NCBI GenBank assembly: GCA_963770565.1
Contig: CAVYQE010000010.1
Location: 32,001 to 96,000, forward strand
Origin: an uncultured Actinomycetota bacterium
GTDB lineage: Bacteria > Actinomycetota > Actinomycetes > JAFAQI01
Length of the DNA stretch: 64,000 bases
Direction of reading: 5' to 3'
Shown here: positions 4,612 to 29,478 of the stretch, piece by piece
Numbering within the stretch: position 1 is the first letter of the stretch
How the letters are laid out: the number at the start of each line of letters is the position of its first letter
Made by a program: the position numbers and the translations under genes
Notes under the pieces: generated by a model
Database searches by the model: none
The model's input: the letters and a program-made list of their open reading frames with translations, nothing else
Told to the model about the DNA's origin: nothing

Positions 4612-4638
4612 TTCAAGCCTGAGCGGAACGTGGCCGAT
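4612..4638 (+). promoter_or_regulatory. sigma28/FliA/WhiG-like promoter upstream of mglB-like gene
   Basis: TTCAAG-N15-GCCGAT. Confidence 0.7.
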
Positions 4639-4692
4639 GTGGAACGTGAGGCCCCCCACCCTTGGGACAGGCCGTGAGACGAGGTGTCCGTG

Positions 4693-5301
4693 ATGTCCGA
4701 CTCTGCTAACCGCTCCCAGCGGCTGGATCGAGCGATCGCCGACCTGCTGGCGCAGGTGCCTGAGATTGAGGCCGCAGCGGTGGTTTCCTTCGACGGTCTG
4801 CCGATGGCGAGTGCGCTTCCGGCGACGATGGATGAGGACCGGGTCGCCGCGATGAGCGCCGCCCTGCTGAGCCTCGGGGAGCGAGCGGCTGAAGGGCTCG
4901 GCCGCGGTTCGCTCAACCAGGTCTACATCGAGGGCGACCACGGCACTGTCTTCCTGGTGTCGGCCGAGGACGAGGCCGTGTTGGTCGCGGTCGCGGCCCG
5001 CGGCGCCAAGGTCGGCATGATGCTTTACGAGGTACGCCGGTCCGCTCAGACCGTCGCCAATGTGCTGCGCGCCGAGGTCGAGCCGGAGCTGCTGGCCGAG
5101 CCGGCTGCCGAGTTGCCCCCGCTGCAAGCCGTCGCCCCGCCGCTGCCCGAGCCGGAGCCCGCGCCCGTTGCGGACGTTGCCCCGGCAATGGACGCCGAGC
5201 CGAGCGCACCCTACGCCCCGATGTCCTCGGACCCGGCGTGGGTATCACACCTTCCGAACGGATCTGCGGTCGCCGCCAGCGACCCGCAGCCCTGGTCCTG
5301 A
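4693..5301 (+). CDS. Roadblock/LC7 domain protein (MglB-like GAP) with Pro/Glu-rich tail
   Basis: AAAVVSFDGLPMAS...DRVAAMSAALLSLGERAA..LGRG.LNQVYIEG; upstream of small GTPase; alternative start 4684. Confidence 0.9.
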   Translation: MSDSANRSQRLDRAIADLLAQVPEIEAAAVVSFDGLPMASALPATMDEDRVAAMSAALLSLGERAAEGLGRGSLNQVYIEGDHGTVFLVSAEDEAVLVAVAARGAKVGMMLYEVRRSAQTVANVLRAEVEPELLAEPAAELPPLQAVAPPLPEPEPAPVADVAPAMDAEPSAPYAPMSSDPAWVSHLPNGSAVAASDPQPWS

Positions 5302-5337
5302 CCCCCCTAACCACCCGACGCCCACCCGAGGTCTGCC

Positions 5338-6453
5338 GTGAGACTTGAAGGCTCGCTAGACGCCTTCAGCCTGCCGGATATCTTCTCGCTGCTCAGCATG
5401 ACGAAGAAGACCGGCGGACTGCATCTTCGCCGTTCCGGCGCGCACGGCGTCGTCTGGCTCGGCGACGGGTTGATCAGTGGCGGCGCCTCGGACCTGTCGA
5501 GGCTGGCGTTGGGTCGTCGGCTGGCCGGGTGCGGCCATGTCTCTGACGAACAGCTCCGCGAGGCGGTCGAGCTGGTCGCCGGGTCTACCGACGTCGGCCT
5601 TGCCCGCGCGCTTCGCGACGCGAGCGCCATCGATGAGGGCGAGTTGCACACGGTGGTCTGCGAGCACATCGTGGACACCGTCTTCGACCTGATGCGCTGG
5701 ACCGAGGGCGTCTTCGAGTTCGTCATCGACGAGGCCAACGTCGACGACGTCGGGGTGACCCTCGAGGTCGAGGAGGTCGTGACCGACGCGCGGCACCGGC
5801 TGGACACCTGGGCGACGATCGATGAGGGACTCGCCTCGCTGGACACCGTGTTGTCGCTGTCGCTCAACCCGGATCTCGACCCGACCCTGCAGCGCGACGA
5901 GTGGGCACTGCTGGCGCTCATCGACGGGCGGCGCACCATCAGCGACGTCGTCAACCTCTGCGGCCGCGGTGAGTACGCCGTCGTCGTGGCGCTCAACGAG
6001 CTGGTCACGAAGGGCTTGGTCCACACCGAGGAGTCCGAAGGCGTCGCGGCCCTGCAACAGCGGCAAGATCTGGTCGGTTCACTCGAGACCGAGGTCGCAC
6101 CGGCAACGTCGATCCTTGCCGACGTCCTCAGCGACAACTCGGCGGTCGGCGAGACCGATGTCGACGCCGAGTCCCTCCTGGTCCCGGCCGAGCCGGAGGT
6201 CGCGACTGAGGCCGACGACGACGAGGACAGCGACGACAACGAGCAGGTCGCGGACATCTCCACCCTGCCGCGCGCGACGTCCCACGACGATGCCGACGGC
6301 GGCCTTCACTCGCACGACCACCCCGAGCCGCTCGCCGCGGCCGTGTCCGGCGGTGGAATGGTCACCGCCGTACCGTCCGGGGCGATCGAACGCGACCCGA
6401 GCGTCAACAAGAGCTTGCTGCTGCGCTTGATCGCCGGCGTGAGAGGGCTGTAG
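5338..6453 (+). CDS. DUF4388 (PATAN-like) domain protein with HTH-like region and acidic linker
   Basis: LEGSLDAFSLPDIFSLLSMTKKTGGL...G.I..A, W.EG.FEF, EWALLALIDGRRTISD. Confidence 0.85.
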   Translation: MRLEGSLDAFSLPDIFSLLSMTKKTGGLHLRRSGAHGVVWLGDGLISGGASDLSRLALGRRLAGCGHVSDEQLREAVELVAGSTDVGLARALRDASAIDEGELHTVVCEHIVDTVFDLMRWTEGVFEFVIDEANVDDVGVTLEVEEVVTDARHRLDTWATIDEGLASLDTVLSLSLNPDLDPTLQRDEWALLALIDGRRTISDVVNLCGRGEYAVVVALNELVTKGLVHTEESEGVAALQQRQDLVGSLETEVAPATSILADVLSDNSAVGETDVDAESLLVPAEPEVATEADDDEDSDDNEQVADISTLPRATSHDDADGGLHSHDHPEPLAAAVSGGGMVTAVPSGAIERDPSVNKSLLLRLIAGVRGL

Positions 6454-6455
6454 TC

Positions 6456-7034
6456 ATGGCGACCAGGACACGTCGGCGGACCGCAGGCACTGCGGTGAAG
6501 ATCGTGGTGACCGGCCCGTTCGCGGCCGGCAAGACCACCCTGATCCGCACGATCAGCGAGATCACGGTCCTCTCGACCGAGCGCAGCATCAGCGACGAGA
6601 CCCGCGCCCGCAAGACCGACACCACGGTCGCGATGGACTTCGGCCGGATCACGATCGACCGAGACCTCGTGCTGTACCTGTTCGGCACCCCGGGGCAGGA
6701 CCGGTTCGACTTCATGTGGGAGATCCTCGGCGAGGGCATGCTCGGATACGTCCTGCTCGTTGATTCGTCGCGAGCCGACTCGCTCGACGAGGCGGTCAGT
6801 ATCCGCGAGGCCTTCCGCAAGATGGCGCGGGTTCCGTTCGTAATCGGACTGAACCGGGCCGAGGGCCTCGACGAAGCCGAAGAGGCGACCGTCCGCAGCC
6901 GGCTCGACCTCGAGGACGACGTCCCCGTGGTGCCCTGCGACGTCACCGATCGCGAATCGGTGAAGGCGGTGCTGCTCGCCCTGCTGTACGCCGTTGTCGA
7001 CTCGCTGGACGCCGCTGCCGCCGTGCAGGCCTAG
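6456..7034 (+). CDS. MglA/CvnD-like small Ras-like GTPase (ATP_bind_1 family)
   Basis: G1 GPFAAGKTT, G2 TTVAMDFG, G3 FGTPGQDRF. Confidence 0.92.
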   Translation: MATRTRRRTAGTAVKIVVTGPFAAGKTTLIRTISEITVLSTERSISDETRARKTDTTVAMDFGRITIDRDLVLYLFGTPGQDRFDFMWEILGEGMLGYVLLVDSSRADSLDEAVSIREAFRKMARVPFVIGLNRAEGLDEAEEATVRSRLDLEDDVPVVPCDVTDRESVKAVLLALLYAVVDSLDAAAAVQA

Positions 7035-7049
7035 CGCCCGCCGCGGAGG

Positions 7050-7505: not shown

Positions 7506-7515
7506 CCGGGTTCTG

Positions 7516-8286: not shown

Positions 8287-8296
8287 GATTTGCTCC

Positions 8297-9121: not shown

Positions 9122-9144
9122 AGTTGCGTCCGGTTCGCACACTG

Positions 9145-10269: not shown

Positions 10270-10475
10270 CGGCTACATCCGGTCCCACCTGTGGTCACCC
10301 CGAAACCATAACGTCCGCCACGTCGTTATCAGAGTTGTTGCGTAGGCGTGGGCGAATCCAATCCGGGTCAGAGGTCTGGACCACGCAACGCTTCCCGGAT
10401 ACACGGTCCCGACGAGGTCCGACAGTAGGTTTCAGGCGTGCACACGTTCGCGGTTCTCAGTGGTCACCACCGGAG

Positions 10476-13827: not shown

Positions 13828-13889
13828 CCGTTCACTTTAGAGGCTCGCTAATCCCGCATTATGGAACGGCGCGACAGTACGTTTTATAC

Positions 13890-15791: not shown

Positions 15792-15793
15792 GG

Positions 15794-15820
15794 GTCAAGC
15801 ATCGCTGCGATCGCGCCGAT
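15794..15820 (+). promoter_or_regulatory. sigma28/FliA/WhiG-like promoter upstream of O-antigen ligase-like gene/pilB
   Basis: GTCAAG-N15-GCCGAT ending 8 bp before GTG 15829 (possibly leaderless transcript). Confidence 0.65.
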
Positions 15821-15828
15821 GCCACAGC

Positions 15829-17346
15829 GTGACCCAAGCCGCGGTCACGGCGTCGCCCACGACCGCTGTGACCCCTTCCGCGCGCGCGCCCGAGCCGCCG
15901 TCGAGCCCGCCTGCCCGGCTGCGTGGGATCACCCTGCTTCAAGCCAACGCTGAGACCGCTGCAGTGCTCGCCGTCTGCGCCTGGTGGCTGTTGCTCGCAC
16001 CCCGGCTCGAAGGCGGCCGCGGAGCGGGCGCGGTGACCGGGGGAGCGATCGTCACCGGCCTGGCCACGCTCGTCATCCGGCCGCACCGGTTCGCTCCGCG
16101 CGGCGCGATCTGGCTGGCGCTCGCGGTCAGCGCCGCTGCGCTCGGCGTCGCGGTGCTGGCCCCCACCGGATGGGCCGGTGCACCTGCCGCGGCCAGCTAC
16201 GTCTGCGTGAGCTGGACCGTGATCGTCGTCGCGGCGGCCGCGAGGTCCAACCCCAAGCTCGCGAACCTGATCGTGCTCATGGTCGTCGCCGGCGTCCTGG
16301 TCGAGGTCGCCGAGTCGTGGCTGGCCTGGTGGGGCGGCTCCGATGCCAGCGTGCCGATCTCCGGCACCTTCTACTGGTACGACCCGTTCGCCGCCTTCAT
16401 GCTTGCCGGCACGGTCATCGGGTTCTCCCTGTGGCTGTGGCGCTCGGGGCCGGTCGCGGCGTTCGGCCTGCTCGGCGCGGCGCTGGGCACCATCGGCCTG
16501 GTCTACTCGACCAGCCGCGCTGCCGGAGCTTGCTTCGGGATCGCCCTCCTGGCCGTCGGCGTCGTCCACCTGGCCACCCGCGGCGTCGCCGGGGTGAGAC
16601 GCCTGGTCGTCGCCCTCGCGGCGGTCGGTCTCGCGGTCTGGGGCATCGCCGGGCCGCCGTTCTTTGCGCATCGGTCGCTGCCGTTCGCGGGCACGAGCGG
16701 ACGAGCCAGCGGCCAGTCGCTGAGCCAGAACGGCGGTTATCGGCTCGACTTCTGGCACGAGGCGATCGGGGTCTTCCACCGACACCCGTTGGTCGGGGGC
16801 GGGTTCCACTCGCTCGCGTCGGCGGCGCAGGGTCACGTGCCGCCGGGCTGGCCACTCTCGCCGCTGGCCCACAACGGATATCTGCAGGCGCTGTCCGACG
16901 GCGGCCTGCTTCTCGGCGTCCCGTTCCTGCTCGCGGTCGCCATCCTCGGCTGGTACGTCGTACGAGGCTTGGTCACCGCAGTTCGCCGGCGCGAGCTCAC
17001 CTCCGCCGGGTTCGTCGTCCTGTTGTGCCTTGGTGCCCTCCTGGTGCACTCGGCGGTCGACTTCGACTGGTCGTACGCGGCCGACTTCGAGGTCGTGGCC
17101 GTCCTGGCCGGCTTGGTCGCGGCGATGCACTGGTCGCGGGACGAGCCTCAGACGCGGCCCGCGCCATCCCGGCTGGTCGCGGGCGCGGTGCTCGTCGGCG
17201 TCGTCCTCACCGGGGTGGCGGCGGTCGCCGCCTGGCCCGGAGACTTCAAGCAGTCGTTGCCCCTTGGGCACTCAGCAGTGCGGTCCCTTTGGCACTCCGC
17301 AGCGCAGGCGCCTGCGCACCCCACGAGTAGCGGGAGTTCACAGTGA
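15829..17346 (+). CDS. O-antigen ligase family (Wzy_C) membrane protein; candidate pilin O-oligosaccharyltransferase
   Basis: Polytopic; STSRAA, RLDFWHEA..VF..HPLVGGG, AHNGYLQALSDGGLL, HSAVDFDW; GTGA overlap with pilB start. Confidence 0.85.
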   Translation: MTQAAVTASPTTAVTPSARAPEPPSSPPARLRGITLLQANAETAAVLAVCAWWLLLAPRLEGGRGAGAVTGGAIVTGLATLVIRPHRFAPRGAIWLALAVSAAALGVAVLAPTGWAGAPAAASYVCVSWTVIVVAAAARSNPKLANLIVLMVVAGVLVEVAESWLAWWGGSDASVPISGTFYWYDPFAAFMLAGTVIGFSLWLWRSGPVAAFGLLGAALGTIGLVYSTSRAAGACFGIALLAVGVVHLATRGVAGVRRLVVALAAVGLAVWGIAGPPFFAHRSLPFAGTSGRASGQSLSQNGGYRLDFWHEAIGVFHRHPLVGGGFHSLASAAQGHVPPGWPLSPLAHNGYLQALSDGGLLLGVPFLLAVAILGWYVVRGLVTAVRRRELTSAGFVVLLCLGALLVHSAVDFDWSYAADFEVVAVLAGLVAAMHWSRDEPQTRPAPSRLVAGAVLVGVVLTGVAAVAAWPGDFKQSLPLGHSAVRSLWHSAAQAPAHPTSSGSSQ

Positions 17347-19015
17347 AGCAACTCGGCGACATCCTGCTCGACGACGGCCTCGTCACCCAGGAGCAGCTGC
17401 ACTGCTGCTTACGACGAGCAGCAGCGGGTAGGCCGCAGCCTCGGCCGGGTGCTGGTCGACCGTGGCGTGCTCACCGAGAGCCAGCTCGTCGCCGCGCTCG
17501 CCCAGCAGATCGGCCTGCGGTTCGTCGACCTGTCCGACTTCCCGGTCGACGGCTCAGCGCTGTCGACCGTGCCGCCGATCGTGTGCCGTCGCTACGTCGC
17601 CCTTCCGATCGGCTTCGAGGACGGCCGGCTGCTGGTCGCGATGGCGGACCCGGCGAACGTCTTCGCCCTCGACGACATCCGCTCGCATCACCGGCATCGA
17701 GGTCAAGCCGGTCGTCGCGACCAAGGCCGATGTCAGCGCGGCGATCGACCGCTACCACCGCGCCGACTCCGACCTCGACGACCTCACGATGGCGCTCGAC
17801 GACGAGGAAGACCCGGCGCTCGACAACGTCAAGGAGGTCGTCGAGGACGCGCCGATCGTCAAGTTCGTCAACCTGCTGATCACCCAGGCGATCCAGGACC
17901 GGGCCTCCGACATCCACATCGAGCCGACCGAGCGCGACCTGCGGGTCCGGTTCCGCATCGACGGCGTGCTGCACGAGATCATGCGCTCGCCGCGCAACGA
18001 TCCAGTCCGGCGTCATCCAGCCGGCTGAAGATCATGGCCGACATCAACATCGCCGAGCGCCGGATCCCGCAGGACGGCCGGCTGTCGGTGACCGCCAGCG
18101 GGAAGAAGATCGACCTGCGGGTGGCGACCCTGCCGACCGTGTGGGGCGAGAAGGTCGTCATGCGAATCCTGGACAACTCGACCGCGATGCTGAACCTCTC
18201 CGACCTGGGCTTCAGCGAGGGCAACTTCGAGCGTTACTCGGTGAGCTTCATCGAAGCCGTACGGGATGATCCTGGTGACCGGCCCGACCGGTTCGGGAAA
18301 GTCGACCACGCTGTACGCGACGCTGAACATCGTCAGCCGGCCCGAGATCAACGTCATCACGGTCGAGGACCCGGTCGAGTACCGGCATGCCGGGCATCAA
18401 CCAGGTGCAGGCGAACCCCAAGGCCGGCCTGACCTTCGCCACCGCGCTGCGCTCGATCCTGCGGTCCGACCCCGACGTCGTCCTGATCGGTGAGATCCGC
18501 GACCACGAGACCGCGCAGATCGCGATCGAAGCGGCTCTCACCGGTCACCTCGTGCTGTCCACGCTTGCACACCAACGACGCGCCGGCGGCGATCACCCGG
18601 CTGATCGAGATGGGCATCGAGCCCTTCCTGGTCGGGTCCGCGCTCGACTGCGTGCTGGCCCAGCGGCTCGCCCGCCGGCTGTGCGACAAGTGCAAGGAGG
18701 CCTACACGGCCGAGCCGTCGAGTGCTGCGCTCGGCCGCATTCCCGTGGGAGGACGGCGAACCGCTGCCGACGCTGTACCGCGCGGTCGGCTGCTCGGCCT
18801 GCTCCAAGACCGGCTACCGCGGCCGGCTCGCCCTGCACGAGGTCATGGCGGTCGTCCGAGGAGATCGAGCGGCTGGCGGTCGACGCGCGCGTCGGCGTTC
18901 GAGATCGGCCGGGTCGCCAGTCGAGCAGGGCATGCTCACGCTTCGGCTCGACGGCATGGACAAGGTTCGGGCCGGGGTGACCTCAATCGAGGAGATCTTG
19001 CGCGTCGTGGTGTGA
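17343..19015 (+). CDS. pilB: Type IV pilus assembly ATPase PilB with N-terminal MshEN domain (11 apparent +1 frameshifts in this assembly)
   Basis: Fragments across frames: [74 protein letters not shown], CxxC motifs; removing 11 bases gives 554 codons. Confidence 0.9.
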
Positions 19016-19047
19016 CGGCGACCCGCCATTCGGGTGGGCCGAGGTTG

Positions 19048-19074
19048 CTCAAGACGGGGCGAATGCTGGCCGAT
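19048..19074 (+). promoter_or_regulatory. sigma28/FliA/WhiG-like promoter upstream of pilT
   Basis: CTCAAG-N15-GCCGAT. Confidence 0.72.
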
Positions 19075-19136
19075 GCAGACGTGTGGCGGGACAGGTCTCG
19101 CTGCTCGCGGACGACCGCAGATGAGGGGACACGCAC

Positions 19137-20607
19137 GTGGAGACACAGGGCAACGAAGGCTCGTCCTTTCCGCCGGTTGTCACGTCGGAGTCAACGGCTT
19201 CGGTCGGCCTGACCCCGCTGGACCCGGGCTGGACCCCTGACGGCGGAATGGTGACCTCGCCGTCCGCACCGCCGGCCACCTTGGCCCCGCCGGCTCCGAC
19301 GGTTGCGCCACCTGCACCCGCGCCGGTCCCGGCACCGACTGTGGCACCGGTCGCTCCGGTGGCCGCGCCCGCGCCGACCCCGGCTCCGGCATACGCCCCG
19401 CCGCTGCCGACGGTCTCCCCGAACCTGCCCCCGATGGCACCGCCCACACCGGACGCCGACGCGTTGACCAACGTGAACTCCCAGGTCGAGCTCGACACCA
19501 GCTACGCCCGCGCCGCGCTCGAAGAGGACAGCGGGATCGAGGCCGCGTTGCTGTCCGAGCTGCTCGTCGAGTGCCAGGACGGCGGCGCCTCCGACCTTCA
19601 CCTGACCGCAGGTGCTCGCCCGACGCTGCGGATCAACGGCACCCTGGTGCCGATGGAGGATCGCGCGATCCTCACCCCGCCGGTCATCCAGCGGATGCTG
19701 TACGCGATCCTCACCCAGAAGCAGCGCGAGCGGTTCGAGGAAGAGCTCGAGCTCGACTTCGCCTACTCGGTGCCCGGCCGGGCCCGCTTCCGGGTCAACC
19801 TCTACCGGCAGCGCGACGCGCTCGGCGCCGCCTTCCGGCTCATCCCGTACGAGATCAAGAAGCTCGAAGAGCTCGGCGTCCCGCCGAGCGTCGCCAACTT
19901 CGCCATGCTGCCGCGTGGCTTCGTCCTCGTCACCGGCCCGACCGGCTCGGGTAAGTCGACGACGCTCGCAGCGCTGGTCGACCTGGCCAACCGCCAGCGG
20001 CGCGACCACATCATGACCGTCGAGGACCCGATCGAGTTCCTGCACACGCACCAGGCCTGCCTGGTCAACCAGCGCGAGGTCGGCGAGGACACCCACTCGT
20101 TCCAGAACGCGCTCAAGCACGTGCTGCGCCAGGACCCCGACATCATCCTGGTCGGCGAAATGCGTGACCTGGAGACGATCTCGGTCGCGCTGACCGCGGC
20201 CGAGACCGGCCACCTCGTCTTCGCCACCCTGCACACCCAGGACGCGGCGCAGACCATCGACCGCATCATCGACGTCTTCCCGCCGCACCAGCAGCAGCAG
20301 GTCCGGGTGCAGCTCGCCGGCGCCCTTCAGGGCGTCGTCTGCCAGACGCTGTGCAAGACCTACGACGGCAAGGGCCGCGTGGTTGCGACCGAGGTGCTGG
20401 TCGCGACTCCCGCGATCCGCAACCTCATCCGCGAGGGCAAGACCCACCAGATCTACTCCGCGCTGCAGGCCGGCGCCAAGCACGGCATGCACACCATGGA
20501 CCAGCACCTGGCCGAGCTGGTCAAGTCGGGCCGGATCACCTACGAGACCGGCGCTCGAGAAGTGCCACCACGTCGAGGACTTCAACCGGCTCACCGGCCG
20601 GGCCTGA
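19137..20607 (+). CDS. pilT: Type IV pilus retraction ATPase PilT with long Pro-rich N-terminal extension (one apparent frameshift near 20550)
   Basis: [56 protein letters not shown]; C-terminus [18 protein letters not shown] in next frame. Confidence 0.93.
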
Positions 20608-20618
20608 AAGGAAGCACG

Positions 20619-21862
20619 ATGGCAACCGTCACGACGTACGAGTACTCGGTCCGCGACCGGGCGGGCAAGATGGTCAACGGTGAGCTCGAGGCCGAGACGC
20701 CGAGTCAGCGGTCGTCCAGCGGCTGAAGGCGATGGGCTATGCCCCCGTGTCGATCTCCGAGGCCAACACCGGCCTGAACAAGGAGCTGAAGATCCCGGGC
20801 TTCGGCAACAAGGTGAAGCTCAAGGACCTGGCGATCTTCTCGCGCCAGTTCGCGACGATGATCAACTCCGGCCTGTCGCTGCTGCGCGCGCTGAGCATCC
20901 TCGCCGAGCAGACGGAGAACAAGGAGCTCGCGCGGGTCCTCGCGCGAGGTCCGCAACGACGTCGAGGCCGGCGCCGCGCTGTCGCTGGCCATGGGCAAGC
21001 ACTCCCGAAGGTCTTCCCGCCGCTGATGGTCAACATGATGCAAGGCCGGCGAGGTCGGCGGTTTCCTCGACGCGGTGCTGCTGCAGATCGCGGAGAACTA
21101 CGAGTCCGAGGTCAAGCTGCGCGGCAAGATCAAGTCCGCGATGACCTACCCGGTCGTGGTCGTTCATGCATCGCGATCATCGCGCTGATCGGCATGCTGC
21201 TCTTCATCGTGCCGTCGTTCGCGAAGATGTTCGGCTCGCTCGGCGGCAAGCTGCCGGCGCCGACGCAGATCCTCGTCGACCTGTCGCACGTCGATGAAGT
21301 TCATCCTGCCGTCATGATCGTCGGTGCTGGTCGTCGGCAGTCATCGGTCTGGAACAAGGTCAAGCACCAGCGAGCGGGTCCGCAAGGTCGTCGACCCGTT
21401 GAAGCTGAAGTGCCGGTCTTCGGCATGCTTGTTCCAGAAGATCGCGCTCAGCCGCTTCGCCCGCAACCTGGGCACCATGATGTCGTTCCGGCGTGCCGAT
21501 CCTGCAGAGCCTCGACATCGTCGCCGACACGACCGGCAACGTGGTACTATCACCGCGGCGGTCCGCGACGTGCAGGACAGCGTCCGCAACGGCGAGTCGC
21601 TCACCGCAGCCGCTGAGCACGCACGACGTGTTCCCACCGATGGTCGTGCAGATGATGGCGGTCGGCGAGGACGACCGGTGCGCTCGACACGATGCTGGCC
21701 AAGATCAGCGAGTTCTACGACCAGGAGGTCGAAGCGACGACCGAGGCGCTCACCGCGCTGATCGAGCCCCTGATGATCGCCTTCCTCGGCGGCATCGTCG
21801 GATCGATGATCGTCGCGCTGTACATGCCGATCTTCGAGGTCTACAACCACGTCGGAAGCTGA
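20619..21862 (+). CDS. pilC: Type IV pilus platform protein PilC (T2SS-F family; roughly 15-20 apparent indels)
   Basis: KVKLKDLAIFSRQFATMINSGLSLLRAL, GEVGGFLD, KIKSAMTYP, GVPILQSL, VGEDTGALDTML, LIEPLMI..LG.IVG.MIVALYMPIF across shifting frames. Confidence 0.88.
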
Positions 21863-21915
21863 TCAAGCGGCCGAATGGCCTAATCAAATTCCACCAAACA
21901 TGTGGCCTACGGCCC

Positions 21916-21941
21916 TTCAAGTCTGGACCTGGAAAGCCGAT
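21916..21941 (+). promoter_or_regulatory. sigma28/FliA/WhiG-like promoter upstream of riboswitch and pilA
   Basis: TTCAAG-N14-GCCGAT, about 25 bp before the riboswitch. Confidence 0.65.
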
Positions 21942-21965
21942 CTATCCCATGTCATCGAGCCGTAA

Positions 21966-22054
21966 GGCCAGGCAAGGGCACACCCGTCGTGAGGCGGGGT
22001 CGCAAAGCTACGGGACTCAAGGCCCACCGCGAGTCAGCCGAGCTGCCTCGGCCG
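21966..22054 (+). ncRNA. c-di-GMP-I (GEMM) riboswitch in the 5' UTR of the major pilin
   Basis: AGGGCACA-CCCGTC-GTGA(GNRA)-GGCGGG-GTCGCAAAGCTACGGGAC...GTCAGCCGAGCTGCC matches the GEMM architecture (GGCA.A, P2 with GNRA loop, CGCAAAGC junction, P3, GCUGCC end). Confidence 0.88.
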
Positions 22055-22134
22055 GCGCCTCTTAACGGAGGAGCCGCGCAGAGGGGGAGCGCTCACCAGC
22101 GCGGCTCACCGAAAGTACTACGGAAGGATCCGCA

Positions 22135-22575
22135 ATGCTTGCTCGACTCCGCAAGATGCAGGAGGAGAACGAGGGCGGCTTCACGCTCATCGAGCTCCTG
22201 GTCGTGATCATCATTATCGGCATCCTTGCCGCGATCGCGATCCCGGTCTTCCTCCAGCAGCGCAAGAAGGGCTACGACGCGGCGATCAAGTCCGACCTCG
22301 TCGCTGCCGCGACTGCTGAAGAGACCTACCTGACCGACTTCAACACCTACACCGACAGCACGGCGAACCTGTCCACCTCTGAGACCTTCAAGTTCTCGGC
22401 GGCCGGCGACTACACCAACAACACCCAGGCGCTGACCATCGTGTCCGCCACGAACCAGGGTTACTGCATCACCGGTGTCGCTGCCTCGGGCAACAAGTGG
22501 TTCTACGACAGTGGCAACGGTGGCGTTCAGCCGCTGGCGACCACGTACACCTGCTCTGTCTCAGGCGCAGCCTGA
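22135..22575 (+). CDS. pilA: Type IVa major pilin
   Basis: Class III signal EGG/FTLIELLVVIIIIGILAAIAIP; two C-terminal Cys; RBS GGAAGGA; behind riboswitch and followed by strong hairpin. Confidence 0.93.
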   Translation: MLARLRKMQEENEGGFTLIELLVVIIIIGILAAIAIPVFLQQRKKGYDAAIKSDLVAAATAEETYLTDFNTYTDSTANLSTSETFKFSAAGDYTNNTQALTIVSATNQGYCITGVAASGNKWFYDSGNGGVQPLATTYTCSVSGAA

Positions 22576-22585
22576 TCCAGCGCTA

Positions 22586-22623
22586 CGTCGGAGGCCCGCG
22601 GCGCCTGCTGCGGGCCTCCGACG
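22586..22623 (+). terminator. Strong stem-loop after pilA (terminator or mRNA stabiliser)
   Basis: CGTCGGAGGCCCGC (22586-22599) is the perfect reverse complement of GCGGGCCTCCGACG (22610-22623). Confidence 0.75.
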
Positions 22624-22683
22624 CTTGTAAGCGGTTTCCGAACGTCACTTGATCGATCCGACCCGTCACAGGAGGCGACGAAC

Positions 22684-23133
22684 ATGCACGGTCTGATGGC
22701 CCGGCGCTCGTCCGCCGACGCCGACACCGGGTTCAGCATGATCGAGCTTCTCGTCGTGATCATCATCATCGGCATCCTGGCCGCGGTCGCGATCCCAGTC
22801 TTCCTCCAGCAGCGCAAGAAGGGCTACGACGCGGCGATCAAGTCCGACCTCGTCGCCGCCGCCAGCGCCGAGGAGGCATACATCACTGAGCAGAACGTCT
22901 ACACCGACAGCGTCAACACGCTGAAGAGCGCAGAGGGCTTCAAGTTCTCCCAGGCCGGCTCGTACAGCGGCGGGACGGCAACGATCACCGTCGTGTCGAA
23001 CTCGAACATGGGCTACTGCATCACGGCGACCGCGGCGTCGGGCAACACCTGGTTCTACGACAGCGGCAACGGGGGCCTGCAGCCGTTGAACACCAGCGGG
23101 ACATACACCTGCTCGGTCTCCGGAGCTTCATAG
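22684..23133 (+). CDS. Type IVa pilin, paralogue 2
   Basis: DTG/FSMIELLVVIIIIGILAAVAIP; RBS AGGAGG; closely similar to pilA. Confidence 0.92.
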   Translation: MHGLMARRSSADADTGFSMIELLVVIIIIGILAAVAIPVFLQQRKKGYDAAIKSDLVAAASAEEAYITEQNVYTDSVNTLKSAEGFKFSQAGSYSGGTATITVVSNSNMGYCITATAASGNTWFYDSGNGGLQPLNTSGTYTCSVSGAS

Positions 23134-23182
23134 CCGGGGCACGAGCCCACATAGCCGAGGTAAGTCGAGGGGAGGGCCTCAG

Positions 23183-23632
23183 ATGACGATCTTGAGCGCT
23201 CGACGGCTGGCAGACGACACCGAGCGCGGATTCACGCTCATCGAGCTTCTCGTCGTCATCATCATCATCGGAATCCTCGCGGCGATCGCGATCCCGGTCT
23301 TCCTCAACCAGCGGCTGAAGGCGTACGACACGGCGTCGAAGAACGATCTTCGTAATCTGGCCAACTTCGAAGAGATCTACCTCGACGACTTCTCGTCCTA
23401 CGGCACGATCGCCAGCGTCCAGGCCAACGAGCCGACCGTGAAGGCCAGCGGCGGAGTGACGCTCTCGGTCGTCGACTACATCGGCAACGCCGGCTACTGC
23501 CTGTCGGCGTCACACGTGGGCGACCCCAAGGTCTGGTACTACGACAGCCAGGGCGGCGGCCTGCAGCCGAACGGCGCGTCCGGGTGCCCCGTCACCACGG
23601 GTGGCACGCCCGGCGACAGCATCACCGGCTGA
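23183..23632 (+). CDS. Type IVa pilin, paralogue 3
   Basis: ERG/FTLIELLVVIIIIGILAAIAIP; GYC...WYYDS..GGLQP...C. Confidence 0.92.
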   Translation: MTILSARRLADDTERGFTLIELLVVIIIIGILAAIAIPVFLNQRLKAYDTASKNDLRNLANFEEIYLDDFSSYGTIASVQANEPTVKASGGVTLSVVDYIGNAGYCLSASHVGDPKVWYYDSQGGGLQPNGASGCPVTTGGTPGDSITG

Positions 23633-23655
23633 TCGGACGATCCACCCAGATGGCT

Positions 23656-23682
23656 ATCAATCAGCGGCACGCTCGTGCCGAT
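23656..23682 (+). promoter_or_regulatory. sigma28/FliA/WhiG-like promoter upstream of the minor pilin operon
   Basis: ATCAAT-N15-GCCGATAG, 9 bp before GTG 23692. Confidence 0.55.
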
Positions 23683-23691
23683 AGTGCGACG

Positions 23692-26172
23692 GTGACCCGC
23701 TTCTTGACGCGCGCCCTCGCACCCCGTCGCGGCTCCGACGAGGGCTTCTCCATGGTCGAGATGATGGTCGCGTTGCTCATCATCGCGATCGTCTCCGCCG
23801 CCAGCGTCGCGTTCTTCGTCGACAACATCCGCGGGGTCAACGATCAGCGCCAGCACCAAGAGGCGGTCTATCTGGCCGACCAGCAGATGGAGACGGTCGA
23901 GTCGTTGCCGGTCGCGAAGCTGGTCGCCGGCCGTACCCAGACAGAGGTCAACGCCCTCTACACCACGGCAGCCGCGACCAAGCTCAACATCACCGGCCAG
24001 GACGACACCTCCAACGCCGGCAACTACGACTCGACCGCGAGCTCGACCGGTAGCGAGACGGTGCCGCTGACTGTCACTCAGACGGTCAACAAGGTTCCGT
24101 ACGCGCTGACCACGTTCATCGACGTGTGCTGGTACAGCAATGTGACCGGCTTCTGCACGCCGACGTCGGGCGCGACGACCACCCAGGAATACCGCGTGTC
24201 CGTCTACGTCACCTGGAAGTCTCCCGGTGCGTGCGCGAGCGGCTGCAACTACTCGACCAGCACCCTGATCGACCCGAGCGCCGACCCGTTGTTCAACACG
24301 AACATCAGTTCGCCGACCGGGACCCTGACGACCCCCGCGTCCGGGACGGTCGACAACGACAACGACGCCAGCAGCTGCACGACCAACGGCAACACGTTCG
24401 CCGGCACGCTCTTTAAGATCACCGGCGGCGCAAATCTCAAGTCGAATATCAGAGTTCTGATCTCGGCCGGCGGTGGCGCGATCCCGCCCGCGAGCATCTA
24501 CCAGCCGGTCGCGGCCGAGGTCGACTTCTGCCTGCAGACCTATGACGTGCCGGGTCCTTACACGCTCTCGATCATCAACACCGATGGCGGGCACTTCCAG
24601 ACCTCGATCACCGAGACGGCGAACATCACCGGCGCCGGCGGCTGGACGCCGACGGTGCGGAACCTGACCCTGACCGGTGGCGGCTTCGAGTCCGGCGCCA
24701 CCTTCACCGCGACCGGAGCGAGCTGGTCGGCGGCCAACCCGCTGGTGAGCGGCAAGAGCATCAACAAAGGCGACAGCACCGACGACTCGGTGGTGCTGAC
24801 CAACTTCGTCGGTCCGACCAACGGCGGCACCGCCGTCATCACGATGACGAACCCGGACCTGACGTCCGACACGTGGACGATCACCGCTCCCAAGGTGACC
24901 GCGCTGAGCCGGACGGTGATCGTGGCCGGCCAGAACATGGCCGTGTCGGTGACCGGCACCGGCTTCCAGAACGGGCTCACTCCGGTCGTCACCAACGCCA
25001 CCCTGTCCGCAACGGTGGTCTCGTCGAGCTCGGTCAGCATGGTGATGACCGGCATGGTGGCCGGCACCAATGCGACCGTGATCCTCGAGAACCCCGACGG
25101 CGGCACCACCGCGACGATGTCGTTCCCGGTCGATCCGCCCCCGGTTGTGCTCAGCGCGACCCCGAACAAGATCGTGGCCGGCCAGGCGATGAACGTCACC
25201 GTCACCGGTACCGGCTTCGTCTCGGGCATGACGCTGTCGCAGACCAACGGAACCGCGCTGACCGTGATCTCGCTGAACTCGACCACGTTGGTGCTGTCGA
25301 TCACGGCCGCCACCGCGGGGTCCGACGCGATCACGATGACGAACCCGGACGGTGGTACGACGAGCTTCTCGCTCACCGTCGACCCGCCGCCGGTGATCGC
25401 CTCCTCATCGCCGAGCCCGCTGCTCGTGAGCGTTGCGCACACGGTGACCTTGACCGGTACCGGCTTCGTCAGCGGACTGACCGTGGCCGCGGCCAACGGC
25501 AGCTTCACACTCGGAACGGTCACCCCGACGTCGATCACCCTGACCAACTTCCTCTCGAGCACCGTCGGGTCGGACGTGGTCACGGTCACCAACCCCGACG
25601 GCGGCATCGGCGTCTACACGCTGACCATCTCGCCCCCGCCGACCCTGACCTCGATCACCGGCGCCCCCGTGGTGAAGAGCCAGGCGAAGACGATCACGCT
25701 GGTCGGCACCGGCTTCCAGGCCGGCCTGAGCGTTACGGCGAGCAACGGCACCTGGACGGTCGGGACGATCACGGCGACCTCGATCGTGCTGAACAACTTC
25801 ACCGCGACCGCTACGGGCACGGACACGATCAACGTGACCAACCCCGACGGTGGCACTGCTTCCATCGGCCTTACGGTTGACGCTGCGCCCACGATCACTG
25901 CGGTGACGCCGGCGACAGTGAAGCACAACACGGCGAAGACGTACACGCTGACGGGTACCGGCTTCGTGACCGGCGCGACGATCACGATCACCGAGAACGG
26001 TACGTCGATGACGGGCATCTCGGCGACGACGGTGTTGAGCTCGACCTCGCTCACATTCAGCGCCACGGCGCGCGCGACGCCGACCTCCGGGAATGCAACC
26101 GTGGTGATCACCGTCACCAACCCGGACGGCGGAGTCAGTAACGCGTTCTCCAAGACCATGACGGCGAGCTGA
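23692..26172 (+). CDS. Large minor pilin (PilV-like N-terminus) with 6-7 tandem IPT/TIG-like Ig repeats
   Basis: DEG/FSMVEMMVALL; repeated P.I....P / V.LTGTGF..G / VTNPDGG units of about 80 aa; start uncertain (23650 or 23692). Confidence 0.85.
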   Translation: MTRFLTRALAPRRGSDEGFSMVEMMVALLIIAIVSAASVAFFVDNIRGVNDQRQHQEAVYLADQQMETVESLPVAKLVAGRTQTEVNALYTTAAATKLNITGQDDTSNAGNYDSTASSTGSETVPLTVTQTVNKVPYALTTFIDVCWYSNVTGFCTPTSGATTTQEYRVSVYVTWKSPGACASGCNYSTSTLIDPSADPLFNTNISSPTGTLTTPASGTVDNDNDASSCTTNGNTFAGTLFKITGGANLKSNIRVLISAGGGAIPPASIYQPVAAEVDFCLQTYDVPGPYTLSIINTDGGHFQTSITETANITGAGGWTPTVRNLTLTGGGFESGATFTATGASWSAANPLVSGKSINKGDSTDDSVVLTNFVGPTNGGTAVITMTNPDLTSDTWTITAPKVTALSRTVIVAGQNMAVSVTGTGFQNGLTPVVTNATLSATVVSSSSVSMVMTGMVAGTNATVILENPDGGTTATMSFPVDPPPVVLSATPNKIVAGQAMNVTVTGTGFVSGMTLSQTNGTALTVISLNSTTLVLSITAATAGSDAITMTNPDGGTTSFSLTVDPPPVIASSSPSPLLVSVAHTVTLTGTGFVSGLTVAAANGSFTLGTVTPTSITLTNFLSSTVGSDVVTVTNPDGGIGVYTLTISPPPTLTSITGAPVVKSQAKTITLVGTGFQAGLSVTASNGTWTVGTITATSIVLNNFTATATGTDTINVTNPDGGTASIGLTVDAAPTITAVTPATVKHNTAKTYTLTGTGFVTGATITITENGTSMTGISATTVLSSTSLTFSATARATPTSGNATVVITVTNPDGGVSNAFSKTMTAS

Positions 26173-26174
26173 CC

Positions 26175-26798
26175 ATGCGAGCGAACCTGCGGCGCCGGCT
26201 GCGCAAGTCGGACGAGGGAACCAGCCTCATCGAGCTGCTGGTCGTAATGATCATCTTCACGATGATCATGGCGATCATCACCACCGCAATCGTGAACATG
26301 GTGCACGAGGGCCAGCGGCAGTCCGGGCAGAGCAACGACATGAGCGCCGCGCGCAAGGTGATCACGATCCTCGATCACTCGGCGCGCTACGCCAATGCGA
26401 TCACGGCCCCGGGCACCGGCACCGACGGCAACTTCTACGTCGAGTTCCAGACGGGGAACAACGGCCAGCAGCAGACCTGCACGCAGTGGCGCTGGGTGCA
26501 GACCGGCGGCAAGCTGCAGTGGCGGACCTGGCAGCCGCCGTTGAGCGGCATCGGCTCGGTCACGGCCACCAACTGGTCCACAGCCGCGATCGGCATCAGC
26601 AAGATCGGGTCGACGCCGGTGTTCTCGATCGCGGTCGCCTCGTCGGCCGACGCCAAGGAGCAGCTCACCGTGGCGTTCACCGCGACCAGCGGCGCGCCGT
26701 CGACGAGCTCCTCGAGCCAGGTGACCTTGACCGCGATCAACTCCGCCTCAAACAGTGCACCTCTCGCCGCAACATGCACCCAGGTTGGTCGTCCATGA
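26175..26798 (+). CDS. Minor pilin (PilW/PulJ-like)
   Basis: DEG/TSLIELLVVMIIF class III signal; two Cys. Confidence 0.85.
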   Translation: MRANLRRRLRKSDEGTSLIELLVVMIIFTMIMAIITTAIVNMVHEGQRQSGQSNDMSAARKVITILDHSARYANAITAPGTGTDGNFYVEFQTGNNGQQQTCTQWRWVQTGGKLQWRTWQPPLSGIGSVTATNWSTAAIGISKIGSTPVFSIAVASSADAKEQLTVAFTATSGAPSTSSSSQVTLTAINSASNSAPLAATCTQVGRP

Positions 26799-28558
26799 AC
26801 CGATTGATCCGCATCGTGCGCAGCCGCCAGAACAACGACGGCGGCTTCGCCATGATCTTCACGCTCTTCCTGATCCTGATCATTGCGGTGGTGAGCGTCA
26901 CGGTCGCCGACATCATGATCAACCAGGTCGGCCCGACCACGCTCGCGCAGAAGCAGGTGCGGACAGTCGATGCAGCGTCCGCGGGCATGCAGGCCGCGCT
27001 CGGCCAGCTGCGCAACACCTCGACGAACGGCGGCGGTGACCTCACCAAGCTGCCGTGCTCGGACACCACCGACTCGGGCGGCGTGACGCTGACCGTCGGT
27101 ACCCCCAAGCAGACCGTCTCGGTCGCCGGTGACCAGATCAACGGGACGGTCGAGCAGGTCACGCCGGCCAACACGGTCGCGACCTACCGCACCGTGATCG
27201 CCTACTTCCAGACCGACCCGACCTCGCACGAGGCCGACTCCTCGACGACCTGGTGGGCCAACAACGCGATCCCGTGCAAGGCCGGCATCGTGAAGTACGT
27301 CCCGACGTACGCGTTCATCCAGTCGTACGGACTAGGCCAGACGCTCCCGAACCAGGCCGCGACCGAGGGCAACCGCACCCTGCATGCGGTCTACCAGTTC
27401 AACGCGACCAACACCAACACGGTCGGCGGCCGGATGGCCGAGTTCAACAGCAGCGCTCAGGACACGATGTGCCTCGACACTGGCCGCGCCGAGCCGACCG
27501 CCGGCACTGTGGCGACGATGCAGCCCTGCCTGGCCCTCGGCACGCCACAGCAGACTTGGCAGTACCGCGCCGACCTCACCCTGTTCTACGGCGGCGACAC
27601 GACGCTGAACCTGTGCATTCAGAACGTGACCGCGACCTATGGGCATGCCGGTACGCCGAAGCTCGAGCCGTGCGCGACGATCGGGTCCGGCACGACCTAC
27701 CCGTACGCGAACCAGACGCAGCAGGAGCAGGAGTGGGCCTACAACGACAACGGCCAGCTCGAAGCGCCTGACATCAACAACGGAAGCGTCGGCGGCGGCA
27801 CTGCGCCGGACCCGGGTGGCTGCCTCGAGGGCGCCGGTGTCACCACCTCCGCAGCGGCGGTGGCCGGCGCGGCCCTCAGCGTCGTCACCTGCAGCGGCTC
27901 GTCTGGCGACCTCACCGCGTGGAACCCCGACCCGCAGGTCGGCGCCGGCAAGTCCGGTGGCAACGTGACCGGTATCCCCGGTGCGCCGACCCAGCAGTAC
28001 GTCAACTACGCGATGTTTGGGAACTGCCTCGACGTCAACGGCCAGCAGTTCGGCAACAAGCTGATCGCCTACCCGTGCAAGCAGGCGCCGGACTCGACGA
28101 CCCTGACCTGGAACCAGCTGTGGCATTTCCAGACCGTGTCGGGCTCGTACGGCATCTTCTACACGAACTGCTCGGCCGGGGCGAGCGGTTGCATCCCGTC
28201 GAGCCCGGCCTCATCGGTGAAGGACTGCCTGGTCTCACCGGGCACCCTCAACGGCCTGGTGTACGGCGTGCAGTGCCCGACCGGCACGCCGCCGGACAAC
28301 GAGCTGTGGGACCCGACCGGCGTCGTCTCCGGCAACTACCCGAGCTCTTACCTGCTTATCAACAAGGCGGACGGCTACTGCATGGCGCCGGATCCGACCC
28401 AGCGGTCGAACGGCTGGGCGCAGATTGCCGTTACAACCTGCGACGGCACCAACATTCCGTCCGGCGCGGGCGCGAAGAACTCGTTGCTGCTGAAGTGGAA
28501 CGCGCCGGCGACGAACCCCAACGCCGGGTTGAGCAGCATCCAGGAAGACTCCAACTAG
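26795..28558 (+). CDS. PilX-like minor pilin with ricin-B (beta-trefoil) lectin repeats
   Basis: DGG/FAMIFTL (no Glu5, PilX hallmark), AASAGMQAAL; repeated CLD...C....Q.W units (QQTW, QEW, NQLW, NELW); ATGA overlap with upstream gene. Confidence 0.82.
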   Translation: MNRLIRIVRSRQNNDGGFAMIFTLFLILIIAVVSVTVADIMINQVGPTTLAQKQVRTVDAASAGMQAALGQLRNTSTNGGGDLTKLPCSDTTDSGGVTLTVGTPKQTVSVAGDQINGTVEQVTPANTVATYRTVIAYFQTDPTSHEADSSTTWWANNAIPCKAGIVKYVPTYAFIQSYGLGQTLPNQAATEGNRTLHAVYQFNATNTNTVGGRMAEFNSSAQDTMCLDTGRAEPTAGTVATMQPCLALGTPQQTWQYRADLTLFYGGDTTLNLCIQNVTATYGHAGTPKLEPCATIGSGTTYPYANQTQQEQEWAYNDNGQLEAPDINNGSVGGGTAPDPGGCLEGAGVTTSAAAVAGAALSVVTCSGSSGDLTAWNPDPQVGAGKSGGNVTGIPGAPTQQYVNYAMFGNCLDVNGQQFGNKLIAYPCKQAPDSTTLTWNQLWHFQTVSGSYGIFYTNCSAGASGCIPSSPASSVKDCLVSPGTLNGLVYGVQCPTGTPPDNELWDPTGVVSGNYPSSYLLINKADGYCMAPDPTQRSNGWAQIAVTTCDGTNIPSGAGAKNSLLLKWNAPATNPNAGLSSIQEDSN

Positions 28559-28569
28559 CGCTGGTGATC

Positions 28570-28592
28570 GGCGGCTCGCGGATCGAGCCGCC
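28570..28592 (+). terminator. GC-rich hairpin after minor pilin operon
   Basis: GGCGGCTCG-CGGAT-CGAGCCGCC, 9-bp stem. Confidence 0.45.
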
Positions 28593-28626
28593 CGGCACCG
28601 TCGCGCCGAACCGGTAGCCTCCTCGC

Positions 28627-29409
28627 GTGGCCGGCCTGCTCGCCCTGATCGGGCTTTTCGGTCTCGCCATCGGCTCGTTCCTCAACGTTGTCATCTGGCG
28701 GGTGCCGCGCGGCGAGTCGGTTGCCCGCCCGCCGTCGCACTGCCCGTCCTGCGACGTGTTGATCAGCCACCGCGACAACGTGCCGGTGCTGTCGTGGCTG
28801 TTCCTTCGGGGCCGATGCCGCAACTGCAACGCCAGGATCTCGATCCGCTATCCGCTGGTGGAACTTGCGACCTGCGCCCTGTTTGTTGCGTTCGGGATTC
28901 GGTTCGGGATCCACGCGGATCTGTTTGCGTACCTGTACCTGGCCGCGGTCGGCATTGCGCTGGCAATGATCGACATCGATCTGCTGCGCCTTCCGGATGC
29001 GCTCACCCTCCCGTCGTACCCGGTTGGCCTAGCGCTGCTCGGGATCGCCGCATGGGTCGACAACGCCCCTCACGCCTTCGTACGGGCCCTGCTGGGGATG
29101 GCTGCCCTAGCAGCCTTCTACGCCCTTGTATGGCTGATCTACCCGGCCGGAATGGGCTTCGGAGACGTGAAGCTGGCCGGCCTGGTGGGCCTCTATCTCG
29201 CCTGGCTCGGCTGGGACCAGCTCGTCGTAGGGGCATTTGCCGCGTTTGTCGTCGGTGCGGTCGCGAGCGTCGGCATCGTGGCGGTCAAGGGCGGCAACCG
29301 CAAGACCCGGGTGCCATTCGGTCCGTTCATGTTGATCGGGCTCCTGATCGGGATTTATGCGGGTCACCCGATTGCCCACGCATACACCCATTTCACTTCT
29401 GGATCTTGA
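28627..29409 (+). CDS. pilD: Prepilin peptidase/N-methyltransferase (A24A)
   Basis: GSFLNVVIWRVP, SHCPSC, GRCRNC, ID.D, GMGFGDVKL, VPFGPFM. Confidence 0.96.
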   Translation: MAGLLALIGLFGLAIGSFLNVVIWRVPRGESVARPPSHCPSCDVLISHRDNVPVLSWLFLRGRCRNCNARISIRYPLVELATCALFVAFGIRFGIHADLFAYLYLAAVGIALAMIDIDLLRLPDALTLPSYPVGLALLGIAAWVDNAPHAFVRALLGMAALAAFYALVWLIYPAGMGFGDVKLAGLVGLYLAWLGWDQLVVGAFAAFVVGAVASVGIVAVKGGNRKTRVPFGPFMLIGLLIGIYAGHPIAHAYTHFTSGS

Positions 29410-29451
29410 ACGGGCCCTAGCCCGACCGGACCAATTTCCGGCCTCCGTCTG

Positions 29452-29478
29452 CTCAAGAAGCGCCGTGTCCTTACCGAT
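29452..29478 (+). promoter_or_regulatory. sigma28/FliA/WhiG-like promoter upstream of pilM
   Basis: CTCAAG-N15-ACCGAT. Confidence 0.62.

Follow-up and report, generated by a model that had tools for sequence, protein, structure and literature searches.

Putative WhiG-type promoters recur across type IV pilus, MglB-like and glycan genes of an uncultured actinobacterium

The DNA considered here is a stretch of 64,000 nt (the window) from an uncultured actinobacterium, corresponding to C10:32001-96000, on contig C10 of genome G000 (4.43 Mb, 11 contigs, ~69% G+C). It carries a type IV pilus gene cluster, an MglB-like operon and a set of glycan genes, and six copies of a two-box motif precede genes of these modules. 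A first-pass annotation, made from the sequence of the window, had proposed that the six copies tie mgl, glycan and pil genes into one regulon of sigma-28 type. The proposal is borne out in that the motif is enriched, is conserved in relatives and is accompanied by a sigma-28 gene in the genome. We consider it highly probable that RNA polymerase containing WhiG, a sigma factor of the RsiG-controlled WhiG2 type with one copy in the genome, uses the six sites as promoters, and that these jointly switch on six units. In each promoter, a -35 element G.TCAAG would be followed, 15 nt on, by a -10 element [G/A]CCGAT. With their operon limits as predicted here, the units would comprise the MglB-like/PATAN/MglA-like module, Wzy_C with pilB, pilT with pilC, the pilins via a riboswitch leader, the minor pilins with pilD, and pilMNO.

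All six sites are present as first described, lie on the + strand in intergenic DNA, and face the next gene. Promoter 1 (TTCAAG-N15-GCCGAT, 4612..4638) stands ahead of the Roadblock/PATAN/GTPase operon, with 45 nt between the end of the -10 box and the start codon. Promoter 2 (GTCAAG-N15-GCCGAT, 15794..15820) is located 3 nt past the stop codon of the upstream glycosyltransferase gene and 8 nt before the GTG of the Wzy_C gene. The corresponding distance to the start codon is 62 nt for promoter 3 (CTCAAG-N15-GCCGAT, 19048..19074), ahead of pilT, and 69 nt for promoter 6 (CTCAAG-N15-ACCGAT, 29452..29478), ahead of pilM. Promoter 4 (TTCAAG-N14-GCCGAT, 21916..21941) is found 26 nt 5' of a riboswitch aptamer and 193 nt from the pilin start codon, with the riboswitch in between, and promoter 5 (ATCAAT-N15-GCCGAT, 23656..23682) ends 9 nt 5' of the GTG of a large minor pilin gene at 23692.

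The simplest alternative is that such boxes are chance matches in G+C-rich DNA. Short degenerate patterns are indeed frequent, 15 of the 34 matches to a loose motif in the genome fall in coding DNA, and one match in the window (22017) lies within the riboswitch. Still, TCAAG-N14-16-GCCGAT matches four times in the window compared to a mean of 0.06 in 100 shuffles, none of which reached four, and TCAA-N17-CCGAT matches six times compared to 0.17 in shuffles, again with none reaching six. The latter matches are five of the six noted sites and one position within a glycosyltransferase gene (11302). A relaxed motif gave 11 matches on the + strand of the window and 0 on the - strand. The motif also stands above background genome-wide, at the correct spacer: intergenic TCAA-Nn-GCCGA was counted 18, 6, 14, 19, 8, 15, 36, 9, 14, 16, 10, 15, 10 and 10 times for n = 10-23, with a sole peak at n = 16 (36 versus 6-19 at the thirteen other spacers). 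These counts are approximate, since "intergenic" was defined by a crude codon-usage gene caller. A more demanding form, T[CT]AAG-Nn-NCCGA[TC], restricted to intergenic, co-oriented sites with a gene start at <=300 nt, gave 15 sites at n = 15 and 0-6 at eleven other spacers. Together with the conservation described next (24/24 loci with diverged spacers for pilM), this excess at a single spacer has already refuted chance as an explanation, and we assign it a negligible probability. Roughly, the genome holds about 13-20 such promoters, six of them within this 25-kb stretch. The individual matches at 11302 and 22017 were themselves taken as chance and set aside.

Conservation was followed in 36 genomes of the same GTDB family, mostly fragmented metagenome-assembled genomes (MAGs); relatives of this family are labelled Frankiaceae, Mycobacteriales or Sporichthyaceae MAGs. 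In the family loci both boxes are kept at fixed spacing while the 15-nt spacer between them diverges. Upstream of pilM, GCT[C/T]AAG-N15-NCCGA is retained in 24/24 loci, where the boxes form islands of identity between diverged spacers. The Roadblock gene likewise keeps its motif in 24/24 loci, 70-96 nt before the start of the protein match and again with diverged spacers, and pilT in all 21 orthologous loci (L076-L097, leaving aside paralogues at <=54% identity and L096, the match of which starts at residue 250). The anti-sigma gene rsiG, located elsewhere in the genome, carries the same motif upstream; this is kept in 27 of 30 loci, with one more locus showing a 1-nt-shorter spacer and two showing GTCGAT. 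For the Wzy_C gene the motif is kept in 11/15 loci. In the five closest loci its first base precedes residue 1-2 of the protein by 34-38 nt, a distance that fits a leaderless start. Some form of the motif occurs within 300 nt of the large minor pilin in 10/11 loci; in five of the 11 (G000 and its four nearest orthologues) it reads CTATCAAT-N15-TGCCGATAG, with a GTG or ATG exactly 9 nt past the -10 box. Two units thus appear to be leaderless, as judged from the start codons 8 nt (Wzy_C) and 9 nt (minor pilin) past the -10 box and from the retention of these distances in relatives.

The pilM promoter extends further. In a wider set of public genomes, 58 of 79 pilM loci show the motif 71-127 nt upstream (L203, which has no upstream DNA, being excluded), including some labelled Kineococcus, Sporichthyaceae and Frankiales; among pilM loci at <=48% identity it was seen in L210 only. 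Two genomes outside the family, G042 and G044, keep both the promoter-Roadblock and the promoter-riboswitch-pilin arrangements. The Roadblock query gave no match in three Kineococcus genomes.

The cognate sigma factor had been expected outside the window, and a FliA/WhiG gene does lie there. A single gene, on contig C1 (C1:1409444-1410121), exceeds the curated cut-off of the FliA/WhiG model TIGR02479 (282.7 bits vs 189.6). Its product aligns over 228 residues to Streptomyces venezuelae WhiG (PDB 6pfj_A, crystallised with RsiG and cyclic di-GMP (c-di-GMP)) at E 1.1e-111. An RsiG homologue is present as well (C1:530468-531007; PF22802, E 3.7e-15, with weak matches to solved RsiG chains). It is of the long form with two motif regions, and its c-di-GMP motif 1, E(X)3S(X)2R(X)3Q(X)3D, is intact in 19/19 aligned RsiGs of the family. 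Neither FlhA nor flagellin was found in the genome, whose completeness is estimated at 94.9%. Autoregulation of whiG was considered and rejected, as no motif occurs in the 1500 nt upstream of that gene.

The motif itself points to the same factor. In the preprint of Denis et al. (PMC12871210), the consensus for WhiG2 reads T(A/C)AA-N16-GCCGATAA, with the core GCCGA, and the authors describe a rule by which CGA is invariant and at most one mismatch is accepted in -10 positions 1-2. TCAAG-N15-GCCGAT, being the same as TCAA-N16-GCCGAT, is of this WhiG2 form. Four of the six sites (4612, 15794, 19048 and 23656) agree with the rule exactly; that at 29452 has ACCGA, i.e. A for G at -10 position 1, an allowed mismatch, and that at 21916 falls outside the strict rule with a spacer 1 nt short. 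All six are intergenic, co-oriented with the downstream gene and <=200 bp from its start codon. Taken together, 85 distinct sites yield G.TCAAG-N15-[G/A]CCGAT(g) as their consensus. Among the positions not forced by the search pattern, the G after TCAA is conserved in 99% of these sites, the upstream G (two bases before T) in 88% and the T at -10 position 6 in 85%. The match to the WhiG2 consensus, the one FliA/WhiG sigma above cut-off and the presence of RsiG agree with the initial assignment to sigma-28/FliA/WhiG-type promoters.

The boxes might nevertheless be genuine promoters that are read by another of the genome's alternative sigma factors. The genome encodes several further group 3/4 sigma factors, seen as 11 weaker TIGR02479 matches of 20-129 bits (the next best sigma scoring 129 bits). 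In addition, the -35 box TCAAG is not the TAAA of the classical sigma-28 promoter, for which the flagellar consensus TAAA-N15-GCCGATAA is quoted in PMC8325347, and the reading of these sites by WhiG is a prediction from sequence. Against this alternative, GCCGAT with its invariant CGA is the hallmark of sigma-28/WhiG promoters and the reported WhiG2 consensus is matched. Moreover, the pilM motif co-occurs with a high-scoring WhiG: in a sample of 10 hand-picked, mutually related genomes, a WhiG of 282-285 bits was present in 5/5 motif-positive and in 0/5 motif-negative genomes, three of the latter having a homologue of 221-231 bits and two having none. The motif upstream of rsiG in 27/30 loci, that is, at the gene of the WhiG anti-sigma factor, likewise speaks for WhiG. 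Reading by another sigma factor is consequently regarded as unlikely.

A dimeric or two-domain DNA-binding regulator could likewise account for two short boxes kept at a constant distance; the motif would in that case be a bipartite operator and not a promoter. Another conserved box, TAGGCCGnnCGGCnCAAT, which shortly precedes the pilM site, could be taken in the same sense. The boxes, however, form neither a direct nor an inverted repeat, and they are always co-oriented with the gene. At two sites a conserved start codon follows them at 8-9 nt, which would suit a leaderless promoter but not an operator, and a known sigma consensus is matched. An operator is considered very unlikely.

Several observations weigh against reading by WhiG, or against the scope given to the regulon. 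Besides the divergent -35 box, the last two bases of the classical -10 element GCCGATAA are not kept in the 85 sites. RsiG motif 2 is E(X)3S(X)2R(X)3H(X)3[S/A] in 19/19 aligned RsiGs of the family and departs from the published pattern (H for Q, S/A for D). The approximate nature of the intergenic counts and the hand-picked, related genomes of the co-occurrence sample belong here too. The MCP/CheA operon of G000 carries the motif (C2:268375), and this site is kept in only 4/30 family loci, the other 26 (460 nt each) lacking any match, for which reason chemotaxis is not counted as a conserved member. A site at the gene of an EAL protein (c-di-GMP turnover; C11:637524) gains little or no support, the protein having one partial match among the 36 family genomes. 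The pilB and pilC genes are frameshifted in the assembly, which means that this strain may fail to make pili by this programme or that the assembly errs there. Lastly, a comparison of 19000-24000 with public metatranscriptomes (three, from soil and ice, holding 5-6% of the sampled words) at 90% likeness returned only short contigs, mostly 90-95% alike, that cover the conserved core of the ATPase and the N-termini of the pilins. They derive from relatives and are uninformative as to transcription starts or expression in this organism.

The pilin unit combines its promoter with an RNA element. A c-di-GMP-I-GGC riboswitch aptamer (RF03167, 67.8 bits vs a gathering score of 59, E 6.8e-14) occupies 21968..22051 on the + strand, between promoter 4 and the pilin ATG and hence in the 5' leader; the transcript would start ~20 nt before the aptamer. 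In the family, RF03167 is represented by 30 copies in 20/36 genomes, the 12 genomes of genus g8 having yielded none. Of these copies, 13 are preceded by the motif, which begins 51-56 nt 5' of the aptamer and has a spacer of N14 in the four genomes of the genus of G000 and N15 in other genera. Two copies show a doubtful motif at another distance. The remaining 15 are without the WhiG motif and lie mostly on other contigs, which suggests that the aptamer also controls other genes. Downstream open reading frames were examined for 14 pil-linked copies, namely the 13 with the motif at 51-56 nt and L123, one of those with a doubtful motif. A pilin frame begins 111-134 nt past the aptamer in 13 of the 14, G000 included, L123 being without one. 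A consensus scan found no terminator-like site, and no U tract is present after the aptamer. A single-sequence fold of the leader gives two hairpins and a free Shine-Dalgarno sequence, which favours neither an ON nor an OFF switch over the other. It should be noted that the leader segment TGTCATCGAGCCG (21949-21967), which links the -10 box to the aptamer, is retained in different genera and can pair 3' of the aptamer as an extended P1 stem. On the 3' side, the aptamer is followed by a small conserved hairpin (CCUCC...GGAGG, with compensatory changes) and then by a 9-bp GC hairpin.

A c-di-GMP riboswitch ahead of a pilin gene is known from pilA1 of Clostridioides difficile, and in both cases the 5' leader of the gene for a major type IV pilin contains an aptamer of c-di-GMP class. 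They differ in that pilA1 has a class II aptamer behind an ordinary promoter, whereas the aptamer here is the class I GGC variant (RF03167) and the sigma factor of the promoter is itself expected to be under c-di-GMP control. No tested ligand of the c-di-GMP-I GGC variant was found in a literature listing.

By homology with Streptomyces and Rubrobacter, RsiG loaded with c-di-GMP would hold WhiG inactive; when c-di-GMP drops, WhiG would be freed and all parts of the pilus programme would start together. As rsiG carries the same promoter, negative feedback is predicted. The riboswitch would provide a second, RNA-level checkpoint on the mRNA of the major pilin, and the tandem of sigma factor and riboswitch would place two c-di-GMP sensors in series on one gene. 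A more ambitious reading is put forward tentatively, its chance being a little short of even: that WhiG is the master sigma factor of a complete twitching programme in non-flagellated Frankiales-like actinobacteria, wired to c-di-GMP at two levels (RsiG-WhiG with feedback, and the riboswitch) as a feed-forward gate, and also driving a polarity module and a glycan gene. If true, the regulon would be to pili what the late sigma-28 regulon is to flagella. In Escherichia coli and Bacillus, a dedicated sigma factor (FliA or SigD) and its anti-sigma factor switch on scattered operons of the motility organelle. The resemblance lies in a single sigma factor with an anti-sigma factor, in scattered operons for a surface organelle and in the same -10 core. 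There, however, the organelle is a flagellum and FlgM is exported via the hook-basal body, whereas here a type IV pilus and a c-di-GMP-armed RsiG would take their places.

Control of pili by WhiG is already in print, both for Rubrobacter and as a phylum-wide prediction; the present case probably adds another lineage and some genes new to such a regulon. In Rubrobacter radiotolerans, a (RsiG)2-(c-di-GMP)2-WhiG switch is reported to control type IV pilus genes (Schumacher et al. 2021, PMC8325347). As described there, that organism resembles the present one in being non-flagellated and non-sporulating, in having WhiG with RsiG and several sigma-28-type promoters in the pilus cluster, and in an EAL c-di-GMP gene with the motif. 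The published account differs in other respects. Three promoters are described compared to six in 25 kb here, a TAAA -35 element was searched for in place of TCAAG, and the RsiG dimer is of the short single-motif type, in contrast to the long RsiG with two motif regions. Transcription starts were mapped in Rubrobacter, whereas those of the present case are predicted from sequence. Relative to that description, the MglB-like/PATAN/GTPase operon, Wzy_C, rsiG and the riboswitch behind the pilin promoter are extra.

The preprint by Denis et al. (2026, PMC12871210) predicts WhiG2 regulons across the Actinomycetota, and the consensus, the pairing of WhiG2 with RsiG and the targets (type IV pili, chemotaxis, c-di-GMP enzymes) given there agree with those found here. 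Pilus targets are reported for Cellulomonadaceae, Cryptosporangiaceae, Sanguibacteraceae, Rubrobacteraceae and Jonesiaceae, as compared to the uncultured family of this work. The main text of the preprint does not contain roadblock, MglA, GTPase, riboswitch, Kineococc or Frankia; its supplementary tables may list such targets. In Actinoplanes missouriensis, FliA-family sigma factors are described to transcribe zoospore flagellar and type IV pilus genes (PMC8325347, PMC12871210), and the first-pass annotation had drawn a parallel to Actinoplanes motility promoters of the form CTCA-N15-17-GCCGA. As to the sigma-28 family the parallel holds, since such a factor drives pil genes in that organism and CTCA-N16-17-GCCGA overlaps the CTCAAG sites found here. 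As to class it does not. The preprint gives the WhiG1 (Actinoplanes) consensus as CTCA-N16-17-GCCGAACT, and the published descriptions combine flagella, WhiG1-type sigma factors, a lack of RsiG and the -10 element GCCGAACT, whereas the present genome has RsiG and a -10 element GCCGAT and yielded no flagellar genes, so that the sites fit WhiG2 better than WhiG1/FliA.

The apparent additions to the published picture are a putative, conserved WhiG promoter at an MglB-like/PATAN/MglA-like operon, the predicted tandem of another such promoter with a c-di-GMP-I-GGC riboswitch at the major pilin, a probably WhiG-driven rsiG and two apparently leaderless starts. The WhiG-RsiG switch on type IV pili would accordingly reach, beyond Rubrobacter, into a large uncultured soil lineage and relatives labelled Sporichthyaceae and Kineococcus. 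The deeply conserved logo G.TCAAG-N15-[G/A]CCGAT is usable for regulon annotation in MAGs, and the MglB-like/PATAN/GTPase operon could be a first handle on pilus placement or steering in monoderm actinobacteria. The practical value is moderate because the principle has been published.

The genes of the window with Pfam or NCBIfam assignments run, on the + strand, in the order rapZ, yvcK, whiA, the Roadblock/DUF4388/GTPase genes, a glycan cluster (glycosyltransferases, flippase-like), Wzy_C, pilB, pilT, pilC, the riboswitch, three pilins, a large minor pilin, two pilus proteins, pilD, pilMNO, aroC, aroK and aroB. Behind promoter 1, and on the same strand, lie genes for a Roadblock/LC7 MglB-like protein (4684-5301; PF03259, 67.3 bits), a DUF4388/PATAN protein (5338-6453; PF14332, 72.3 bits) and a small MglA-like GTPase (6456-7034; best Pfam match PF03029, 74.4 bits). 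As the operon holds no histidine kinase gene, it is not a conservon. The name mgl given to it initially finds partial support in the GTPase, whose best solved relatives are MglA chains, albeit at a weak E of 8e-5. Proteins of MglB, PATAN and MglA type are known to accompany type IV pili, as are surface glycans, and the view that the modules look unrelated is not upheld. PATAN regulators reportedly contact the pilus motor, and MglA is said to stimulate pili. An association of PATAN (DUF4388) has been noted for MglA groups 1 and 5 (PMC4316618). The Wzy_C-domain membrane protein behind promoter 2 (15829..17346, + strand; PF04932, 54.8 bits) has no NCBIfam match and no solved relative at E up to 1, and an O-antigen ligase, an O-antigen polymerase and a pilin glycosylase are for this reason indistinguishable.

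The type IVa machinery is represented by PilB, PilC, PilD, PilM/N/O, PilT and pilins, all encoded on the + strand. The extension ATPase gene pilB (17398..19009) is detected as TIGR02538 pieces in alternating frames, with at least 7 frame pieces in the assembly, and the platform gene pilC (20732..21862) as PF00482 pieces with internal stops in different frames. Between them, the gene of a PilT-family retraction ATPase with an N-terminal extension of ~130 aa (19137..20726) scores 488.8 bits for TIGR01420 (cut-off 319.1). Compared to the related genome G025, in which the pilB frame is open (557 aa), pilB shows 11 single-base insertions confined to 17399-18917. A further ~18 indels of 1-2 nt, mostly insertions, are spread across 20550-21672, ~16 of them in pilC (20944-21672); none occurs in Wzy_C or the pilT core. 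The frames of pilB (554 aa), pilT and pilC are open in G022 as well, and the few-contig assembly G024 is fragmented in the same genes. The breaks in pilB and pilC reflect either decaying genes or local assembly errors. The last ~55 residues of the pilT frame extend past the matches of all relatives, which end at residue 472-475 of 529. This tail (20550-20726) follows insertions of +1 at 20550 and +2 at 20698 relative to G025, and may therefore be out of frame.

Downstream of the riboswitch, three pilin genes (22135-22575, 22684-23133 and 23183-23632) each encode a PF07963 N-terminal methylation motif, and the first also matches PilA/GspG models. They are followed by the large minor pilin (23692-26172; PF07963), a minor pilin (26175-26798; PF07963), a protein with a ricin-B lectin domain (26804-28558; PF00652) and the prepilin peptidase gene pilD (28627-29409; PF06750/PF01478). 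A "choice-of-anchor Z" repeat (NF058597, 105 bits) stands at the end of the large minor pilin; this protein and the ricin-B lectin protein are candidates for a sugar-binding pilus tip. Behind promoter 6 lie pilM (29548-30627; PF11104, 152.9 bits), pilN (30624-31310; PF05137), pilO (31312-32115; PF04350) and a further gene (32128-32850). The conserved box TAGGCCGnnCGGCnCAAT extends over 29407-29440 from the pilD stop codon, ~15-20 nt upstream of the pilM -35 element. It is found at the same place in 23 related loci and could serve as a regulator site or act like an UP element.

Elsewhere in the genome, a second PilT-family gene (TIGR01420, 379 bits) adjoins that of a divergent GspE/PilB-like ATPase of 598 aa (C1:296536-299501; 181-196 bits, far under the cut-offs), and no WhiG motif is listed there. 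A TCAAG-N14-GCCGAT site at C1:187394-187418 lies 249 nt before an open reading frame matching the C-terminal part of DprA (PF02481 positions 132-211) and may sit within or ahead of a competence gene. Further motif-bearing candidates in G000 are genes for a CAAX protease, STAS, AAT, NlpC/P60, DUF3159 and DUF6159 proteins, and unknowns. Three near-identical copies of TTTCAACCCCAACGGGGTTG[C/G]GGCCGACGTCGC (C1:36069, 109376 and 377627) were caught by the loose motif; their appearance is that of a hairpin-containing dispersed repeat and not that of a promoter. The gene caller covers 76% of contig C1 as compared to 81-94% of the other large contigs, indicative of either regions of different codon usage or more broken frames.

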